Assembly: GCF_030013205.1 (NCBI RefSeq)
Contig: NZ_CP122648.1
DNA: 64,000 nt
From: Escherichia coli
GTDB taxonomy: Bacteria > Pseudomonadota > Gammaproteobacteria > Enterobacterales > Enterobacteriaceae
Reading direction: 5' to 3' (one strand)
The notes under the pieces are model-generated. The model ran no database searches. It saw nothing but the letters and a program-made list of their open reading frames with translations, and was not told the DNA's origin. Positions 37,019-44,954 of the stretch are shown in pieces. The stretch's first letter is position 1. Each line of letters starts with the position of its first letter. Made by a program: the position numbers and the translations under genes.

Positions 37019-38252
37019 CGCTCTGACCGTTACAAAAAGAGAAAGCGCCCCGTTGCCGGAGCGCCTTTGTGAACGAATAGCCTACTGCGCCATATTGCTT
37101 ACTGTCTACGAGGCAGATTATAGCGTTGTGGTCGCACAGAGTGAAGGCGCTGATCACCGTTACTACAGCACGCCAGAAATGCAGAATATTTTGCTGCAAA
37201 ATGCCGTTGGTCACGCCGTCCGGAAAGCAAAAAATTTTGCTGGTGGCGCGACTGATGCGATTTTGTCAGGTCGCCAGGTGCTGATCAATCTGATGTCTGA
37301 TTTCGTTCTGGATAAAACAAAGGCGACCGCAGAGGGTCGCCAGTGGGTATTACGGCAAATCAAACTTGAACGCATCACCAACAATGCCACATTTGCGGCT
37401 GGTGGGCAATGTGATCAGTCAGATTTGGTTCGTTCCAGGGTTTGCAACGAGAGCTTTTTCCTGCGCTCTTTAAGGAATTTCTCAAGAGCAAACGAACAAG
37501 GTGCGAATCTTTCTGATTCATGCTCTATCTTTCTGCGCCGTCTTTTCCGTGTCGGTGATAATGTTTTGGTCAATTCTTTATCGGTCATTGTGTTGTCCTG
37601 CATAGCAATGCGCCGTAGTTACTCACACCACGGCGCTGATAGTGATTATTCTGATTCTTTGGCCTTCCGGCGCTGTTCATATTTTAATTTGCGTCCACAG
37701 GCATCTAAGACCCATGCGGAAAAATTAGCACTAGGATTAGTTAATTTTTCTTGTTCAACGCTGGCATCAATCCCATCTATAAGCTCATGTGGGAATCGAA
37801 TATTTTTCTTTGCTGATTTGTTGTTTGTGTTACCGCTAGACATTGATGCACCTCACTTAAATGGACTTTATGGGCGCACACAATACAGCAAAAAAAATGA
37901 GATGTTAAGTATTGACATGTGCGCACACATGATTTTAATCTGTGCGCACAGTTTGAGTTTTGTCACTCAAATTAAGCAACGCCCCGCAGTGCTCGCAACA
38001 CATGCAGGGCGTCTAACCACCAACGATAGCAAGAGTATCGAGGTAGCTATGAGAAATCATACCACACACCCGCAAGGGCGGGACTCGCACAACCTGAATA
38101 AATATATCTGGCGTTTTATCGCCCTGAGCACCGCACAACCGCGCGTGATTCACATCGTGGCCACCAGCGAACAGGAAGCACGCCAGCAATCTCCTGATGG
38201 CTGCGTGATGGTATTCGCTGCCCGTATTCGTCAGGGGGTAAGTCATGCATAA
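37011..38252 (+). CDS. doubtful 413-codon open frame, translationally coupled to the antirepressor gene
   Basis: ATG overlaps the upstream stop (ATGTGTAA); first ~130 codons look protein-like, the rest is low-complexity and overlaps two minus-strand ORFs and a promoter/operator region. Confidence 0.25.
   Translation: MCNALTVTKRESAPLPERLCERIAYCAILLTVYEADYSVVVAQSEGADHRYYSTPEMQNILLQNAVGHAVRKAKNFAGGATDAILSGRQVLINLMSDFVLDKTKATAEGRQWVLRQIKLERITNNATFAAGGQCDQSDLVRSRVCNESFFLRSLRNFSRANEQGANLSDSCSIFLRRLFRVGDNVLVNSLSVIVLSCIAMRRSYSHHGADSDYSDSLAFRRCSYFNLRPQASKTHAEKLALGLVNFSCSTLASIPSISSCGNRIFFFADLLFVLPLDIDAPHLNGLYGRTQYSKKNEMLSIDMCAHMILICAHSLSFVTQIKQRPAVLATHAGRLTTNDSKSIEVAMRNHTTHPQGRDSHNLNKYIWRFIALSTAQPRVIHIVATSEQEARQQSPDGCVMVFAARIRQGVSHA
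37415..37603 (-). CDS. small basic hypothetical protein
   Basis: 62-aa Lys/Arg/Glu-rich ORF downstream of the YlcI-like ORF on the same strand. Confidence 0.4.
   Translation of the reverse strand: MQDNTMTDKELTKTLSPTRKRRRRKIEHESERFAPCSFALEKFLKERRKKLSLQTLERTKSD
37646..37843 (-). CDS. YlcI/YnfO-family (DUF3950-like) small protein
   Basis: 65-aa ORF with NIRFPHELIDGID...NFSAWVLDACGRKL, matching the prophage YlcI/YnfO pattern as I recall it. Confidence 0.55.
   Translation of the reverse strand: MSSGNTNNKSAKKNIRFPHELIDGIDASVEQEKLTNPSANFSAWVLDACGRKLKYEQRRKAKESE
37868..37951. promoter_or_regulatory. divergent promoter region with three GCGCACA operator-like sites
   Basis: GGGCGCACACAAT; TTGACA immediately followed by GTGCGCAC (8-bp palindrome); perfect 12-bp palindrome CTGTGCGCACAG. 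Confidence 0.6.
38049..38252 (+). CDS. small hypothetical protein (possibly Icd-like)
   Basis: 67-aa ORF MRNHTTHPQGRDSHNLNKYIWRFIALSTAQPRVIHIVATSEQEARQQ... with SD GAGG 5 nt upstream; the Icd-like assignment is a weak memory-based guess. Confidence 0.4.
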   Translation: MRNHTTHPQGRDSHNLNKYIWRFIALSTAQPRVIHIVATSEQEARQQSPDGCVMVFAARIRQGVSHA

Positions 38253-38610
38253 CCTGTCAATTTCTGACCTTAACTGCATTCAGTTTGACGAGAAATTTAC
38301 CGGGCAGCTACTGGTCCATGTGGAGAACGGGCGCATAGTGCGTAATTACCACCTGCCGGATGGTGCAATTGCCGGAAGTGTTGAAGCATTGCTGGAACTG
38401 GCAGAGCGTGCGCGACTGATTAATCCGTCAACGTGCTATCACGATGATGATCTGCATTTTACCGGACGCATGGTGAGCCATTATGAAAACGGCGTTGAGG
38501 TATCCCGCGAACGTATGCGTGATGATTGCTGTTTCGGCACACTGCCGGAATTTATCGAGTTGCTGACCAGTTGCGGTTATCAGGTTATTCAGGGGGTGAA
38601 TTATGGATAA
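38245..38610 (+). CDS. hypothetical protein (paralogue A)
   Basis: 121-aa ORF with SD AGGGGG; shares a FTGxLLV...G...L motif with the next ORF. Confidence 0.55.
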   Translation: MHNLSISDLNCIQFDEKFTGQLLVHVENGRIVRNYHLPDGAIAGSVEALLELAERARLINPSTCYHDDDLHFTGRMVSHYENGVEVSRERMRDDCCFGTLPEFIELLTSCGYQVIQGVNYG

Positions 38611-38803
38611 TCAGCAAGCAACAATGACAATTACCCTGAGTGCGCCAGATGATTTCACCGGACGCATACTGGTTTACCTGGATAAAGGAAAAGTGAAATC
38701 ACAATGCCGACTGAAAAGTAATGAGATTGTTGGTTCTCCTGAATTTTTTTCTGAACTCTGTATTCGTGCGGAAATAAAACCGGAACTGCTGACAGGAAAA
38801 TAA
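38603..38803 (+). CDS. hypothetical protein (paralogue B)
   Basis: 66-aa ORF overlapping the upstream stop; PDDFTGRILVYLDKGKV... parallels DEKFTGQLLVHVENGRI... in the previous ORF. Confidence 0.5.
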   Translation: MDNQQATMTITLSAPDDFTGRILVYLDKGKVKSQCRLKSNEIVGSPEFFSELCIRAEIKPELLTGK

Positions 38804-38807
38804 AACC

Positions 38808-39098
38808 ATGAAAAAGAAAAATTCTGGCTTTACTGCCAGCGGCCTCTCTCGGCCTGAAATCCGCCCCGGTGATATTTTCCGGGACACCAGACGCGGGGGA
38901 CGGGTGGTTATTCGTCACGTTACGCCAGGCAATATCACCTACCGCCGTGAGGCTTACGAATATGACTGCGTAATGCCGCGCCGTCAGTTTGATCGTGATT
39001 TTATTCTGGTGGAAAACAAACAACTGGCAGTGGCGAGACGTGCAGCCACGAATATTAAAAAAATCCGGGCAATGTTGGTTGCGGGAGGTAAGAAGTGA
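38808..39098 (+). CDS. hypothetical protein
   Basis: 96-aa ORF; stop overlaps the start of the replication gene. Confidence 0.5.
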   Translation: MKKKNSGFTASGLSRPEIRPGDIFRDTRRGGRVVIRHVTPGNITYRREAYEYDCVMPRRQFDRDFILVENKQLAVARRAATNIKKIRAMLVAGGKK

Positions 39099-40507
39099 AA
39101 AACGCACCGAGTCTAAAATATCAGCCGAAGGATAAATTCACTGAGGTAATCATTTTTGCCGGGACGGATGCTTACGCCCATGCTCAACACTGGATTGAAA
39201 GTGAAGGACGAAAACACGGCGATAACGTGCCTCCTGTTTACCTGGGGCCAAAGCAACTGGCAGACCTGGCGAATATCCGCATTATTGACGAGAAACGCCG
39301 TTTTGCGCGTGTCTATATCGCGGGGGAGATAGAGCCAATCCAGATCAATACTATCGCTGAAAAGCTGGCGCTGGCTGGCGTACAGGAGGCGAAATTATAC
39401 AAAGGTATCACCGACCAGGAACCGGAGAACTGGCGCGACTACCTGCAACGGATCCGCGAACAGGCTGAGCGCGAAGAAATGCTTACTGACGAGCAATACA
39501 GCCAGCGAAAAACCACGCTACCAATGAGCATTGGATCGGAAGGATACGATTCACAGCTTAGCTATGTGGTTAAGGGTGTGATTCCGGCTAATTCGTTGTG
39601 CAGCACATACGGTGCGAGCGGTTCTTATAAGTCGTTCCTTGCGTGTTCGTGGGCGTGTCATGTTGCTACCGGTATCCCGTGGGGAGGTCGCAGGGTTGTA
39701 CATGGTGCGGTGATGTATGTCGTTGGTGAGGGCGGGATCGGTGTTCCTCGTCGTATCAAGGCATGGGAACTGGTGAACAGTGAGCAGGTGAAAAATCTGT
39801 ACCTGGTAAATCGTCCAATTTTTCCGGCCGCACCGAGTGATGTTGATGAAATGGTTATTGCTGCCCGACAGGTTGAGCAGGAAACGGGTAAACCTGTACG
39901 CATGATTATTCTGGATACTCTGGCGCGTTGCTTTGGTGGCAGCGATGAAAATGATGCGCGGGATATGGGGGCATTTGTCCATGGATGTGACGAACTGAAA
40001 CGGCGTACAGGCGCTACAGTGCTGGTAATTCACCATTCCGGCAAGGATGAAACAAAGGGTGCGCGCGGTTCCAGTGCGTTTCGTGCAGCACTGGATGCAG
40101 AGTACCGGATACGCCGTGAAGGTGCAGGCAGTGAAGCCCTGGTTATCGCATGTACCAAGATGAAGGATGCGGAGGAACTGAAAGAAATGGCTTGCGATTT
40201 GCGCGAGGTTGAGCTTTTCAAGGATGAAGGCGGGGAGTTAATCACGTCATTGGTGCTGGAGGATAAGCCCCGTCCGCCAGTTGAACTGGAGCGCATCGAG
40301 TACGCTGCTAACAAGACAGAGAATCACGTCGCGCTATGGGGCTGTATCCGTTCACGCACGCAACGCGGAGATAAATGCACTATCCCGTTGTTGCGCGATG
40401 ACATGAAAAAGCTGGGGTATGAGATGAAACACTTCCGGCGCTGGCTGTACAAGCTGGAAGGTGACGGCGTAATCACTATTGACGGTGATGACGTGCGCCC
40501 ACTGTAA
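39095..40507 (+). CDS. replication initiator / helicase-like protein (RecA/DnaB-like ATPase)
   Basis: SD GGGAGG then GTG; Walker A-like GASGSYKSF, Walker B-like MIILDTLARCF, IHHSGKDETKGARGSSA; immediately followed by an iteron region. Confidence 0.7.
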   Translation: MKNAPSLKYQPKDKFTEVIIFAGTDAYAHAQHWIESEGRKHGDNVPPVYLGPKQLADLANIRIIDEKRRFARVYIAGEIEPIQINTIAEKLALAGVQEAKLYKGITDQEPENWRDYLQRIREQAEREEMLTDEQYSQRKTTLPMSIGSEGYDSQLSYVVKGVIPANSLCSTYGASGSYKSFLACSWACHVATGIPWGGRRVVHGAVMYVVGEGGIGVPRRIKAWELVNSEQVKNLYLVNRPIFPAAPSDVDEMVIAARQVEQETGKPVRMIILDTLARCFGGSDENDARDMGAFVHGCDELKRRTGATVLVIHHSGKDETKGARGSSAFRAALDAEYRIRREGAGSEALVIACTKMKDAEELKEMACDLREVELFKDEGGELITSLVLEDKPRPPVELERIEYAANKTENHVALWGCIRSRTQRGDKCTIPLLRDDMKKLGYEMKHFRRWLYKLEGDGVITIDGDDVRPL

Positions 40508-40900
40508 AAAGTGGGTAGCAAAAGTGGGGAGAGTGAGCAATGAGAGCCAAAGAAGCTATTTTTCCCCACTTTTAAACCTCTATATATACGCAAAAGTGGG
40601 GAGTGAAAAATTCAAAATAAAACAATGAATTATCAACTCGTGGAATCCCAATTTTTGGCGTGGTGAGAAATTGAAAAAGTGGGTAATAAAAATGGGTAGT
40701 GATGGGTAAATGAAAACTATGTGATGAAAGCAATAGGAAGATTAAAAAACAATCAATGCAATGTATTAACTAAAAATTAACTATTTACCCCACTTTTGCG
40801 TATATATAGAGGTTTAAAAGTGGGGGCTTAAAAATATATTTAAAATCATATTGTTATTAACTTCATAAATTCCCACCGGACAACGAGTGGGGAATTAAAA
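40508..40900. repeat. putative origin of replication: AAAGTGGG(G/T)A iterons plus two inverted 38-bp elements
   Basis: at least 8 iteron copies in both orientations; 40564-40601 is the exact reverse complement of 40788-40825; AT-rich spacers. Confidence 0.7.
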
Positions 40901-40909
40901 AAATTAGGA

Positions 40910-41692
40910 ATGTTAAAAATGAAAACAGAACGTTACATACCTCAGGGTATGACTTACATAGAGCGTGAAGAACTGAAAAGTTTTGCGACATCATGTGGAC
41001 TACGCGGCGATATTCAGAGCCTTACCAGAACTCTGATAATGATTGCGCACTGGATGAGGCAGGGTAAGCCAGTGAGCTTCACAGAATACGCCAGCCAGTG
41101 GACAGAGGCACAGCGCGAACGGGACGACGGTAATCACTCAACGCCTGAAATGGCGAAGCAATGGCCTTTCAGTGGCAAACGGTGCATTTATCCCAGGTGC
41201 TCCGATTACTACCCATACGGAACGGAAAGAGAACATCAGGATGACGAAACGGAAATTAAACACGCAGTAACGGTAATTCTTGCCAAATACCCGTTTTTTA
41301 ACCGCAATGGTCTTGTTCGGTATAGCCGTGACAAGCCATGGGAGCACCCGCTTGATTATGTCTGTTTTATGGAGGAGGCAAAAAGCTGTTTGCGCTGGAT
41401 AAGGGAGAACAATCTTACCGACTGCAAAATTGCATCATTCCCCGGTAAAAATCCGACATCCTACGGCCTGAAACATTGTGTTGAACGGGCGAATCAAATA
41501 AGAGCAAAGGCAAACGGAAAACCCACGGAGCCGATGTATATCACAAACGGTGCTCTAATTGCCGCAATGGTCGCGGCTGGTTATCAGATAAAGCCTGAAG
41601 GAAGGATGAATTGCCGATTCAATATTTCGCGTAAGCAGCTTAAGAGTGTATTGAGCGGGGAATCTTACAAATCAGGAGAGTGGGCGATATAA
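40910..41692 (+). CDS. hypothetical protein (Cys-containing, 260 aa)
   Basis: 260-aa ORF directly after the iteron region; no family recognised. Confidence 0.55.
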   Translation: MLKMKTERYIPQGMTYIEREELKSFATSCGLRGDIQSLTRTLIMIAHWMRQGKPVSFTEYASQWTEAQRERDDGNHSTPEMAKQWPFSGKRCIYPRCSDYYPYGTEREHQDDETEIKHAVTVILAKYPFFNRNGLVRYSRDKPWEHPLDYVCFMEEAKSCLRWIRENNLTDCKIASFPGKNPTSYGLKHCVERANQIRAKANGKPTEPMYITNGALIAAMVAAGYQIKPEGRMNCRFNISRKQLKSVLSGESYKSGEWAI

Positions 41693-41703
41693 CGGCAATA
41701 ACG

Positions 41704-42246
41704 ATGGGGCAAAGCATGACTAAGCTGACCATTAACAGAAAACCTAAAGGCATTTACGGCACGCCGCAGAAAACGACGCAGGCGGCGCAGGAGCAGGATA
41801 AAACCACGTCGGCGCATAAAGTGATGCCCGGTAACCAGAAAGCGCAGCAGAAGCCCACAGGGGCGACACCGTGGCGGCATATGACCAAGCGCCAGCGCAA
41901 AAACCGCAGGCGCGTTAACCGCCTTATCGAACTGTGGCCAGAATTATTCAGCCGGGAAGCACCGAAGCCGCTTAAGGTGGGGATATTTGACGACCTGATG
42001 CAGGATCTCGCCGTCAGGGGGCTGGCATTCGGGCCAGGGGCATTACGTGCGACGCTGGCATCTTATGCGCAGTGTCCGCGCTATTACCGCGCCTTAATGG
42101 CTGGTGGGGTACGCTACGACCTGAAAGGCCAGCCGTGCGGCGAGGTGACACCACAGGAACAACAGGACGCAGAAACGCGGCTGGTGGCGCTGAATGAGAA
42201 GCGCAAACGTCAGCGCCGGGCAGCAAAGGAGAAAACAGGCGCATGA
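41704..42246 (+). CDS. ProQ/FinO-family RNA-binding protein-like
   Basis: central region RLIELWPELFSREAPKPLKVGIFDDLMQDL...RYYRALMAGGVRYDLKGQPCGEV resembles the FinO/ProQ fold; start uncertain (41680 GTG, 41704 or 41716 ATG). Confidence 0.55.
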   Translation: MGQSMTKLTINRKPKGIYGTPQKTTQAAQEQDKTTSAHKVMPGNQKAQQKPTGATPWRHMTKRQRKNRRRVNRLIELWPELFSREAPKPLKVGIFDDLMQDLAVRGLAFGPGALRATLASYAQCPRYYRALMAGGVRYDLKGQPCGEVTPQEQQDAETRLVALNEKRKRQRRAAKEKTGA

Positions 42247-42530
42247 TTCACGACAGCAAAGCGGAAGCACTGGAAGCGCGTGGTCTGTACCGGAGAGCGG
42301 CGGCGCGGTGGGCTGAGGTCATCATGCTGGCGAATGATGACAAGGCACGGGAACAGGCGGCAAAACGTCGCGCGGAATGTATCCACAAGGCAGCACGCCC
42401 ACCAGCAAGGCAGGATAATTTCGGGGAGATGCGCGAAACCATCAGCCGGGCACATGCCGGAATGGGATTACATCAGCCCAATGGTAAGGCATTCAGGAAA
42501 TATCCTGGATCGAAAAATTGCAGTCAGTGA
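42243..42530 (+). CDS. PerC-family transcriptional activator-like
   Basis: 95-aa ORF MIHDSKAEALEARGLYRRAAARWAEVI..., ATG overlaps the upstream stop; the PerC assignment is from memory. Confidence 0.5.
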   Translation: MIHDSKAEALEARGLYRRAAARWAEVIMLANDDKAREQAAKRRAECIHKAARPPARQDNFGEMRETISRAHAGMGLHQPNGKAFRKYPGSKNCSQ

Positions 42531-42535
42531 CGGAG

Positions 42536-42606
42536 GCCGGGATTTTTCCCGGCTTTTTTGTGCCAGTAAAAAGCCCGCAGCCAGAAGTGTTGCGGGCTTT
42601 GTTTTT
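42536..42606 (+). terminator. two tandem rho-independent terminators
   Basis: GCCGGGA-TTTT-TCCCGGC plus T6, then AAGCCCGCA...TGCGGGCTT plus TGTTTTT. Confidence 0.7.
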
Positions 42607-42731
42607 CAGGTGATTGAAGTCAATGGGAAGAACGCGATCATCATGCGTTATCGTTTCATAAATTGCAATGATGTAGATCGTCATTTCAGTTTGTGCAATC
42701 ATAATCGTTGTTTTGTTCAGGAGATATGACT

Positions 42732-42905
42732 ATGAGAAAAGCCAGCGTGAAACCCGTTTTACTCGCTCGTGAGCAGATTGAAGCATTACAGCGCATCCAG
42801 GACGAGGAACGCCGCAATTCTCCGCTGGGGATTGCTCCGAGCATTCATGAGGTCGCCCGGCGTTTAATGCAGCGGGCGCTTTATCCCGTAGAACGTCCGG
42901 CCTGA
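42732..42905 (+). CDS. small hypothetical protein
   Basis: 57 codons from ATG 42732, SD CAGGAGA 7 nt upstream. Confidence 0.45.
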   Translation: MRKASVKPVLLAREQIEALQRIQDEERRNSPLGIAPSIHEVARRLMQRALYPVERPA

Positions 42906-42943
42906 TGGTCGTGATTTTTTGGTGAAAAAGAGAGGTGGTAAAA

Positions 42944-43528
42944 ATGCCAGCAAGCAAAGAAGATTTGCGATTAAAACTGATGGAGGTGGTTAACGCTCTG
43001 TCAGAGTCGCAGGGCAGCACTCCGCAGGAGATTATCGAAATTCTGAATGCGATCCCCGCACAGGATTTCACAAAAGCGGACGAGGATGACGCGAATAAAA
43101 ACATCGTCGCGTCAGTCGAAGATGAATCCTCACTGGCAGAAGCCCAGGCTAAAGCGGATTCCGCATACAGCAATATGGGCCGTCGAGCTCCGGCCCCGTT
43201 TGCTGGTGAAAAGTCGATGGATTACCGCAAGCGTGCATTAATTGGTGCACAGAAGCTGGCTAAAAAATTCAGTGATGTGGATATTCGTTCCGTTTCAGAT
43301 TCTGCAACGCTGGCGGTGCTGGAAGATCAGATTTACCAGGCTGCAAAAGACAGTGTTCAGTGGGCTGTGGAAAATACGCCGGGCTATTTGCGTAAAACCG
43401 TAAGAATGGATGAAGCCGGACGGCGGATTACTGAATATCAGGGGGATCCGAATAACTGGCTTAGTGCTTTCAAAATCCCTCCCCGTCGCCTGGTCAAAAT
43501 TAACACTGCAAGCCTCGCGGGGGCATGA
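42944..43528 (+). CDS. hypothetical acidic protein
   Basis: about 194 aa from ATG 42944 with SD AGAGGTGG; acidic, probably helical. Confidence 0.5.
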   Translation: MPASKEDLRLKLMEVVNALSESQGSTPQEIIEILNAIPAQDFTKADEDDANKNIVASVEDESSLAEAQAKADSAYSNMGRRAPAPFAGEKSMDYRKRALIGAQKLAKKFSDVDIRSVSDSATLAVLEDQIYQAAKDSVQWAVENTPGYLRKTVRMDEAGRRITEYQGDPNNWLSAFKIPPRRLVKINTASLAGA

Positions 43529-43592
43529 AAAACGTGCTGAGTTCAGCCCTGCCGGATTTGGCGGGGCTTATTGCTTATAACCGGATAACATT

Positions 43593-44276
43593 ATGCTTTT
43601 AACAGAAATTGAGGCGGCGAAGCAGATTCGGGACGGACAGCTACCGTCGCCTTATCAGTTTTCCAACATGTGGCTGGTTAACCTGCGTATCACAGGAACC
43701 GGAATGGCCTACCGCGCCGAAGAAAAAGAATTTGTCTGGCGTTCACCGCAAACTTATCTCAATCCGCAGTTCCTGGAACGTTGCGCCGGAGTACCCGTCA
43801 TTATCGACCATCCCGAAAGCAAAACCCTTGAAGACGTGGGCGAACGGTCGCGCATTATTGGCACCGTCATGTTGCCGTATATTCGCGGTGACGAGGTGTG
43901 GGGCGTATGCCGGATTTACGGACAGGAAATCATCGATTACATCCAGAAAGCCCGAGGGGAGGTATCCACCAGTCCGTCGGTTGTGTTTTGTGGTGCCTCA
44001 GGTGGGGCAGAAGTTCCTGATGTAATGGGCGAGGACAATTTTTTTATTGAGGGTACGCCATTTCTTATCGATCACGTTGCGCTCGTGCCGCTTGGTGTTT
44101 GGGATAAGGGCGGGAAACCATCGGGCGTGGAAGTAACAACGCCGACAGCAGAAGAACAGCTTGCCGGAATGGTCCGGGACGTTATTGATGCGGCCTGCAA
44201 GCCAGCTCTGGAAAAACTGGAAGAAATATCCGGGCGGCTGGATCAACTGGAAAAAAACAGAGTGAGTGAATCATGA
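43593..44276 (+). CDS. hypothetical protein
   Basis: 227-aa ORF; stop overlaps the next start. Confidence 0.55.
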   Translation: MLLTEIEAAKQIRDGQLPSPYQFSNMWLVNLRITGTGMAYRAEEKEFVWRSPQTYLNPQFLERCAGVPVIIDHPESKTLEDVGERSRIIGTVMLPYIRGDEVWGVCRIYGQEIIDYIQKARGEVSTSPSVVFCGASGGAEVPDVMGEDNFFIEGTPFLIDHVALVPLGVWDKGGKPSGVEVTTPTAEEQLAGMVRDVIDAACKPALEKLEEISGRLDQLEKNRVSES

Positions 44277-44890
44277 AAATTGCTAAAAACTTAAATCTGA
44301 TTATCCCTGTGCGCACTGAAAAGGGTAATGGCTGGCTCCATGCCACGCCGATCAGCAAAGAGGTGTTTAAAGAGCATTTCTTCATCCTGAGTAAAACCTT
44401 TTCTGCCATTTTTTCTGAAGGTCTTGGTGTTGTTGCGGGTCCGCGCGTTGCCTGCCTTATGCTGGAGAAAATCTCCCGTGACTCCGGTTTATGGGATGGG
44501 GAGAAAGGCATACGTAATACGCTCATAAACGAAATTATTCGCCTGGCAAACCTTGTTTATCCAGTGGAGGGCAAAGGCTACGACACAATCCCTCTCGATA
44601 TGGCGCTGGAGCGTGAAATCGTTGATTTGGACGAAGTGGCGGGTGAACTTGTTTTTTTTACATGCGTCTCGTCGATAAATTCCCCGGAGCAGACGAAGGG
44701 GACTATGGATGCGGTGAATGGAATATGGAGCACTCAATGCTCGTCCTTGAGTCTTACGGAATGGATCGATTCATTGCCGACATTGAAGCCTGCCGTCAGT
44801 TCTGGCGCGACGGCGAACACGTCATCAGCGACATCCTCGACTACTCAGCCGGAGCCGGATTCAGAGACATCTGTGCAGATTCCGGTCTGA
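44273..44890 (+). CDS. hypothetical protein; 3' end uncertain
   Basis: 205-aa ORF with low-complexity Ser/Thr-rich tail; alternative frame 44662-44955 is open across the same region. Confidence 0.4.
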   Translation: MKIAKNLNLIIPVRTEKGNGWLHATPISKEVFKEHFFILSKTFSAIFSEGLGVVAGPRVACLMLEKISRDSGLWDGEKGIRNTLINEIIRLANLVYPVEGKGYDTIPLDMALEREIVDLDEVAGELVFFTCVSSINSPEQTKGTMDAVNGIWSTQCSSLSLTEWIDSLPTLKPAVSSGATANTSSATSSTTQPEPDSETSVQIPV

Positions 44891-44954
44891 ATGTAAAAAC
44901 AGCAGCTCAGTTTCGTGAGCTGCTCAAATTCAAAAATCCCGCAGGAGTATTGTA

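Follow-up and report, generated by a model that had tools for sequence, protein, structure and literature searches.

Two genes homologous to the prophage antirepressors FsoA and Rem lie upstream of the replication gene in a phage satellite of Escherichia coli

We analyzed a 64,000-nucleotide stretch of DNA from Escherichia coli ETEC4079 (here called the window; identical to chromosome NZ_CP122643.1) that contains a satellite of the phage-inducible chromosomal island (PICI) type, ~14.7 kb long, lying roughly at window positions 34,206-48,900 and splitting the yifB/comM gene. Just upstream of the island replication gene, two adjacent open reading frames (ORFs), ORF121 and ORF66, encode a small domain homologous to the antirepressors FsoA and Rem, and both proteins very probably belong to the FsoA/Rem family. 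As a whole, the data are best explained if ORF121 and ORF66 are satellite-borne antirepressors that derepress a helper phage or a co-resident prophage, a reading that we hold with middling confidence. The features that carry this reading are as follows (AF2, AlphaFold2; HMM, hidden Markov model; aa, amino acids).

38245-38610, plus strand: ORF121, very probably a two-domain FsoA/Rem-family protein (phrog_340, 2.4e-29, in two stretches).
38263-38424, plus strand: N-terminal FTG domain of ORF121, a beta-hairpin plus helix (domain HMM, 1.8e-24; AF2 strands at residues 21-27 and 30-37, helix at 46-56).
38431-38592, plus strand: C-terminal FTG domain of ORF121 (domain HMM, 1.6e-23; AF2 strands at 76-81 and 84-90, helix at 100-109).
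38603-38803, plus strand: ORF66, 66 aa, very probably a single-domain FsoA/Rem-family protein (phrog_340, 1.6e-16; domain at 38621-38785, domain HMM 2.4e-26).

An earlier reading of this DNA from its letters alone (the sequence-only reading) had placed small ORFs at these two positions and taken a shared motif as a sign of paralogy. Both ORFs are indeed present, and RefSeq annotates them identically in ETEC4079 (100% identity), each as a "hypothetical protein." Formal alignment bears out the paralogy: BLASTP matched ORF121 to ORF66 at E = 1e-7 (37% identity over 41 aa), and both fall in PHROG 340. That reading had overlooked two things, the icd-like gene that opens the operon and the internal duplication of ORF121, whose N-terminal half matches its C-terminal half at E = 8e-7. 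The domain HMM detects this unit twice in ORF121 and once in ORF66, so that the locus holds three domain copies. All three domain types align without gaps over ~50 columns and share the motif [FY]TG[RQ]-hhh-x-h-x2-G-x-V...S-x4-E-h-x4-G. Structure prediction for ORF66 returned a confident AF2 model (predicted local distance difference test [pLDDT] score of 84) with a beta-hairpin (strands 21-27 and 30-37) followed by a helix (46-55). The paralogy is also confirmed by natural recombinants found in databases: P0020 joins the N terminus of ORF121 to ORF66 exactly at the FTG motif; P0107, P0110, and P0113 are single domains that are N/C hybrids; and in P0095 and P0103, an ORF66/FsoA-like N-domain is joined to a P0056-like C-domain.

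Profile searches then connected these domains to proteins of known function. PHROG 340, labeled "unknown function," matches both ORFs, and some of their relatives carry faint precomputed matches to Pfam PF27490, "Rem." For ORF121 and ORF66 themselves, nothing significant was found in Pfam (the release used is apparently older than PF27490), none in NCBIfam, and nothing meaningful in the PDB, either by sequence or by Foldseek; a tblastn search of ORF121 against GenBank phages gave no match at E ≤ 0.01. A homologue in the Salmonella prophage Fels-1 emerged only when the domain profile was run on a small target set, in which a 78-aa ORF of the Fels-1 early-left operon (NC_010391, 3494-3730, minus strand) matched at E = 4.6e-21. 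This ORF is FsoA, since the published fsoA primers le154 and le162 of Lemire et al. encode exactly its first (MNSQQMM) and last (EAGIRFEEISNVG) residues. By BLASTP, FsoA matched ORF66 at 2e-8, the N domain of ORF121 at 4e-7, and its C domain at 9e-7, and is thus as close to each window domain as the window domains are to one another. PHROG 340 matched FsoA at 1.1e-26 and Rem at 4.4e-21, which compare with 2.4e-29 for ORF121 and 1.6e-16 for ORF66. Between Rem and the window proteins there is no detectable direct BLAST similarity; the domain profile nevertheless matched Rem of E. coli K-12 (Qin prophage, b1561) with an hhalign probability of 81% (E = 1.3e-5, Rem residues 42-79) and an hmmsearch E value of 2.7e-4. 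Foldseek searches with the ORF66 model returned dozens of uncharacterized Enterobacterales proteins of 57-91 aa (template modeling [TM] scores of 0.6-0.85), together with weak matches to C-terminal parts of Bro-N/antirepressor proteins.

Both reference proteins have a demonstrated activity. FsoA acts in trans on the Gifsy-2 repressor, a non-cleavable protein that it binds and inactivates; its gene lies in the Fels-1 early-left operon, is controlled by the repressor of that prophage, and is dispensable when Fels-1 itself is induced (PMC3121763). Rem has been shown experimentally to be an antirepressor of the CI-like repressor DicA, derepressing dicBp 165-fold, and was discovered through its homology to the Salmonella antirepressors GfoA and FsoA (PMC10448788). 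ORF66 has the form of this family, a small protein (~65-85 aa) of one domain built on a beta-hairpin plus helix core, while ORF121 departs from it as a tandem fusion, an architecture not described before for the FsoA/Rem family. An exhaustive phmmer search of 1.84 billion representative sequences gave 23 matches (one spurious), all close or two-domain relatives, and word-indexed profile searches did not extend the family.

The sequence-only reading had proposed a local duplication. The duplication is real, but it is ancient rather than recent: the only DNA-level repeats left are a 16-nt FTGR-encoding stretch (94% identical) and a 22-nt gene junction (82%), and N-domains cluster with N-domains and C-domains with C-domains across orthologues of 25-42% identity from Hafnia, Serratia, and metagenomes. 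Both genes are under purifying selection, with ratios of nonsynonymous to synonymous substitution rates (dN/dS) of 0.14-0.28 for ORF121 and 0.45-0.67 for ORF66 (0.20-0.45 for the neighboring DUF4222 gene). DNA resembling ORF121/ORF66 occurs in 354 of 5426 complete E. coli genomes (~6.5%) and is chromosomal in every case. Within ETEC4079 (NZ_CP122643.1), a 559-nt ORF121+ORF66 query matched three places and a 1.8-kb query four, so this strain probably carries several islands with the ORF121/ORF66 module.

The two genes are embedded in a tightly packed, translationally coupled early operon, whose parts are listed here.

37646-37843, minus strand: YlcI/YnfO-family small regulator candidate, 65 aa (NCBIfam NF041551, 59 bits against a cutoff of 30; phrog_949; RefSeq).
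37871, 37918, and 37941 (span 37871-37950): three palindromic operator-like TGTGCGCACA motifs, overlapping a TTGACA hexamer at 37912-37917 (repeat search, families D2, I4, and I12).
38049-38252, plus strand: icd-like gene, first of the operon, 67 aa (NCBIfam NF033153 phage_ICD_like, 71.8 bits against a cutoff of 25; phrog_6196 and phrog_1743; RefSeq).
38231-38252, plus strand: cassette junction 1, icd-like gene/ORF121, with the Shine-Dalgarno sequence GGGGGT and a ATGCATAA start/stop overlap of 8 nt.
38589-38610, plus strand: cassette junction 2, ORF121/ORF66, with the Shine-Dalgarno sequence GGGGGT and a ATGGATAA start/stop overlap of 8 nt.
38808-39098, plus strand: DUF4222 protein, 96 aa (Pfam PF13973, 4.8e-19).
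39095-40507, plus strand: replication protein, a RepA-family helicase (phrog_2850 and phrog_906; RefSeq annotation).

A coupled cluster of three genes with overlapping stops and starts had been suggested. The 8-nt overlap of ORF121 and ORF66 stands, but ORF66 and the DUF4222 gene do not overlap and are separated by a 4-nt gap; because the icd-like gene overlaps ORF121 and the chain runs on to the replicase, whose start the DUF4222 gene overlaps by 4 nt, the unit is a five-gene operon. Junctions 1 and 2 form a 22-nt direct repeat (D1) that is 82% identical. The same design recurs in related islands, where every small-ORF junction has an 8-nt ATGnnTAA/TGA overlap with a GGAGG-like Shine-Dalgarno sequence in the last codons of the upstream gene (L003, 6250-7080; L006, 5570-6010; L numbers denote the comparison loci). 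This conserved design accounts for the common ...Q(G/E)Vx(H/Y)(A/G) tails at the C termini of the encoded proteins. The junctions may also serve as microhomology for cassette exchange; fusions and hybrids in databases break exactly at the junctions or at the FTG motif (P0020, P0036, P0042, P0107, and P0113). Upstream, the TGTGCGCACA palindromes occupy the stretch that separates the icd-like gene from the divergent YlcI/YnfO-like gene and are likely operators of the early promoter. The YlcI/YnfO-like protein may have a regulatory role, as its position suggests. No LexA box (CTGT-N8-ACAG) was found in 37800-38100; control would therefore resemble that of FsoA, which is under its element's own circuit, and not that of GfoA. 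A search with Rfam over 34000-49500 found no C4-like antisense RNA and gave one weak, unrelated match.

The notion that the region upstream of the replication gene is an accessory slot fits the related islands well: its contents form an array of variable cassettes. Between one and five small ORFs, differing among relatives, occupy it, and DUF4222 is invariably found between this array and the replicase (synteny in L003, L004, L006, L007, L010, L011, and L014). Two loci (L004 and L010) have the same two genes as the window in front of replicases of the DUF5906-primase or DUF927 type; L003 has four small ORFs (74, 121, 77, and 66 aa); L011, a capsid-encoding island, has five; and the divergent loci L006 and L007 have the two-domain gene directly before DUF4222 and no ORF66-type gene. 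The array of the well-studied E. coli PICI EcCICFT073 consists of four unrelated helical ORFs with no FTG domain. The replicases are themselves mosaic. Their N-terminal ~125 residues are conserved and nearly identical within E. coli (window 39095-39470; L003, 7561-7935; L007, 801-1100), and the remainder switches between RepA-helicase, DUF5906-primase, and DUF927 types. Since this N-terminal part travels with the icd/small-ORF/DUF4222 block, a recombination breakpoint lies inside the replicase gene.

Two observations bear on where the cassettes come from. The first small ORF of EcCICFT073 (76 aa, phrog_1478; L014, 1050-1280) resembles by eye a 64-aa ORF of the Fels-1 early-left operon (L013, 4649-4843, minus strand), the pair sharing ...YP...E.S..I.L..RLSGEV...L..EQ, and a DUF4222 gene is also present in the early-left operon of a lambdoid prophage of strain CFT073 (L014, 20192-20431). 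The slot in satellites thus seems to draw on a pool of lambdoid early-left accessory genes.

Under the favored reading, each ~50-aa beta-hairpin-helix domain would be a protein-binding module. The early operon of the island would be switched on at induction or on arrival in a new cell, and termination-reinitiation at the end of the icd-like leader gene would couple the translation of ORF121 and ORF66 to it. The ORF121 and ORF66 proteins would then bind CI-like repressors of resident lambdoid prophages, short and non-cleavable proteins of the GfoR/GftR/DicA/RacR class, causing these repressors to leave their operators; the helper or co-resident prophage would be derepressed and supply the lytic functions that the satellite needs. 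We infer the antirepressor activity, its targets, and the benefit to the satellite from the homology and gene context described above. It is speculation that the three domains, a fused pair and a single one, address a repressor dimer or several repressor specificities. DNA resembling dicA is present in 850 of 5426 E. coli genomes.

Several points weigh against this reading. Antirepressor function is a prediction from homology, and the window domains are only 21-29% identical to FsoA over ~50 residues, so that function may have drifted. The AF2 model of two-domain ORF121 is of low confidence (pLDDT 64; predicted TM score 0.27); it repeats the unit twice without settling how the two pack. No candidate target repressor was identified in the window or in the host genome, of which the window covers 64 kb, and the island annotation has no DicA-like gene. 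The same operon in EcCICFT073 contains no FsoA-like gene, yet this PICI is fully functional, which makes such genes dispensable for the basic cycle of a satellite. Helper titer and CI expression were unchanged by EcCIMP1, a related island (PMC11773190), with the limit that it was not compared for the genes discussed here. A further candidate relative among the Gifsy antirepressors, GftA, was rejected, the link being too weak (phrog_340, E = 0.23; hhalign, 7% against the domain profile).

We weighed four other explanations. In the first, which we consider unlikely, the module has been reused as a generic small protein inhibitor, directed at a helper-phage protein (interference) or at a host protein (takeover). 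The slot does hold diverse, swappable small ORFs that lack an assigned function, the first gene of the operon is a homologue of a host division inhibitor, and the hypervariable N terminus and higher dN/dS of ORF66 would fit an arms race. However, family members of known function are all antirepressors, and the interference genes known from PICIs are located on the downstream side of the replication module (PMC6092414). A search of PADLOC-DB v2 returned no match for ORF121, ORF66, DUF4222, the icd-like gene, or RepA. The sequence-only reading had offered these genes as candidates for helper interference or anti-phage functions; this part of it is unsupported, because there is no match to a known defense system, and we found no evidence of interference. 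The FsoA/Rem homology points the other way, suggesting derepression of prophage or helper repressors rather than an anti-phage role.

A second explanation keeps the antirepressor activity and aims it at the satellite's own regulator, either the YlcI/YnfO-like protein or another island repressor, as a feed-forward commitment switch. It shares the FsoA/Rem homology with the favored reading, a divergent regulator and a promoter region holding the three TGTGCGCACA palindromes immediately precede the genes, and Rem targets the repressor of its own prophage. In contrast, the known targets of the family are CI-like repressors of ~135 aa with a helix-turn-helix (HTH) fold, and the island annotation includes none; the repressor that FsoA targets is a foreign one; and EcCICFT073 has the same regulator and promoter without FsoA-like genes. 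We regard this explanation as quite unlikely.

In a third, ORF121 and ORF66 would be accessory factors of the island replication module, for example, initiator or helicase-loading adaptors. In favor of this, the two-domain protein is strictly syntenic with DUF4222 and the ~125-aa N-domain of the replicase across three catalytic types and across genera. However, pri-rep plus ori alone supports replication of EcCICFT073 (PMC6092414), an island that has none of these genes; the genes for FsoA and Rem do not adjoin replication genes; and ORF66-type genes are missing from the divergent loci L006 and L007. These data make a replication role decidedly improbable. Finally, that the ORFs are decaying, functionless remnants of duplicated phage genes, as the many truncated, fused, or hybrid variants in databases might suggest, is hardly credible given dN/dS well under 1, frames intact in hundreds of genomes, a two-domain architecture kept down to 25% identity, and conserved Shine-Dalgarno sites and coupled starts.

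The remainder of the island agrees with a satellite of the PICI type. Its genes run in the order tyrosine integrase, AlpA-type HTH protein, AntA/AntB antirepressor-family protein, truncated icd-like pseudogene, and divergent YlcI/YnfO-family gene, followed on the plus strand by the icd-like gene, ORF121, ORF66, the DUF4222 gene, and the RepA-family helicase gene, and then by ProQ/FinO, PerC, and a late region. The E. coli PICIs EcCICFT073 and EcCIMP1 share the int-alpA-...-primase-PerC organization with this island (PMC6092414, PMC11773190). Two further features lie upstream of the operon.

36218-37018, plus strand: AntA/AntB-family protein, 266 aa, whose C-terminal residues 172-254 match the PADLOC candidate-defense model PDC-S22 (E = 1.7e-9).
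37293-37650: truncated second icd-like copy, a RefSeq pseudogene.

The island thus carries, in its AntA/AntB-family gene, another antirepressor-like gene that is unrelated to ORF121 and ORF66. Insertion or replacement of the regulator/promoter cassette via recombination is suggested by the pseudo-icd fragment. A 413-aa ORF at 37011-38252 (plus strand) in the mechanical ORF list is an artifact and not a gene; it joins the pseudogene fragment to the real icd-like gene by reading antisense through the YlcI/YnfO gene between them. Elsewhere, the icd-like protein matched only one GenBank record labeled as a phage, LR881103.1 ("Escherichia phage vB_KppS-Ant," 16.5 kb; L016). This record is an induced element with an integrase, an icd-like ORF, two small overlapping ORFs, a primase, and a major capsid gene, and resembles a satellite that forms capsids but was deposited as a phage.

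Directly after PerC, at 42534-42603 (plus strand), stand two consecutive GC-rich hairpins with U-tracts. This segment gave a weak, subthreshold Rfam match to the Bacillus small RNA ncr1175 (32 bits; gathering score, 60) and is most likely a tandem intrinsic terminator rather than that RNA. The late region (42935-46994, plus strand) lacks genes for capsid and terminase and instead codes for an annotated NUDIX hydrolase, a DUF2213 (XkdF-like) protein (43593-44276), and a 680-aa protein with a lytic transglycosylase domain (44955-46994). It resembles the late module of EcCIMP1, discussed as a "DNA transfer protein" module, and hints at a podovirus-type helper.

The antirepressor family and its mechanism are already known from prophages. 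What appears to be new is the presence of family genes in PICI-type satellites, a fused two-domain member conserved across genera, and a layout of icd, antirepressor, and replicase that links P1, P4, and PICIs; our literature search found no paper linking these three points. Gram-negative PICIs are thought to wait passively until a helper phage activates AlpA. If ORF121 and ORF66 are working FsoA/Rem-type antirepressors, PICIs could instead induce resident prophages on their own, like P4 through epsilon, and this would change models of satellite-helper dynamics, of prophage crosstalk in polylysogens, and of toxin-phage induction in pathogenic E. coli. The analysis also offers a testable function for a "hypothetical" gene family in about 6.5% of complete E. 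coli genomes and connects PHROG 340 and Pfam "Rem" to the FsoA literature, and the tandem-domain form is a natural experiment on how antirepressor specificity is built.

Among known systems, satellite P4 offers the closest parallel in gene arrangement. Epsilon of P4 (E) is an antirepressor of the C repressor of its helper, P2, and the P4 record annotates it as a "helper derepression protein." The legacy "cI ORF" of P4 has an ICD-like C terminus (NF033153, 73.9 bits; phrog_1743), placing it in the same families as the icd-like gene of the window. There are 8-nt overlaps between this ICD-like ORF and epsilon and again between epsilon and orf151, and the alpha primase gene ends the operon. Like ORF121, epsilon is satellite-borne and encoded directly after an ICD-like ORF with an 8-nt overlap, in an early operon upstream of a replication gene, which in P4 is the primase gene. 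Unlike ORF121 and ORF66, it belongs to phrog_10016; the likeness is one of role and position, not of family membership, and homology of epsilon to either protein was rejected (BLASTP, E = 1.9 over 19 aa; no HMM match). P4 orf151 was likewise dropped as a DUF4222 homologue, an idea that would have lengthened the shared gene order, having no Pfam match and no significant BLAST match.

Phage P1 has a comparable order in its immI region (c4-icd-ant). According to the P1 record, icd is "apparently required for expression of ant" and overlaps ant1, whose product antagonizes C1, and kilA and repL follow; icd, antirepressor, and replication gene thus stand in the same sequence as in the window. Unlike the window proteins, Ant1 and Ant2 are large (about 260-350 aa) and unrelated in sequence, and P1 uses the C4 antisense RNA; ORF121 and ORF66 have no match to Ant PHROGs. 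The gene orders of P4, P1, and the window therefore all place an antirepressor, predicted in the case of the window, in a coupled position behind an icd-like ORF and ahead of a replication gene, and the proteins in this position are mutually unrelated. More tentatively, and with real doubt, we propose that PICI-type satellites actively induce their helpers: ORF121 and ORF66 may form a multivalent antirepressor set, directed against several repressor specificities or against both halves of a dimer, that triggers the prophages needed in a polylysogen when the satellite arrives or awakens. In its general form, this proposal would make "icd-like leader ORF, then antirepressor, then replicase" a conserved control module of P1, P4, and PICIs with exchangeable, unrelated antirepressor cassettes.

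The Gifsy antirepressors GfoA, GfhA, and GftA are also small proteins that bind non-cleavable repressors, and published work counts them among the relatives of FsoA and Rem; they differ in lying behind dinI under a LexA box. Rem shares PHROG 340 and the terminal helix motif S..AL.E....AG with the window proteins, whereas it has an extra insertion of ~25 aa (an additional hairpin) and is encoded in the nin/Q region of a lambdoid prophage. FsoA has the same domain, with a gapless alignment, the FTGR...NG...E...G motif, and PHROG 340 membership, and is likewise a small protein from an early operon of overlapping small ORFs. It differs as a single-domain, 78-aa prophage protein, compared to a fused two-domain protein and a single-domain partner in a satellite, where the pair is coupled to a preceding icd-like gene, DUF4222 and the replicase follow directly, and the activity is a prediction. 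The role proposed here for ORF121 and ORF66 would be that of epsilon for satellite P4 and that of FsoA in the crosstalk from Fels-1 to Gifsy-2.

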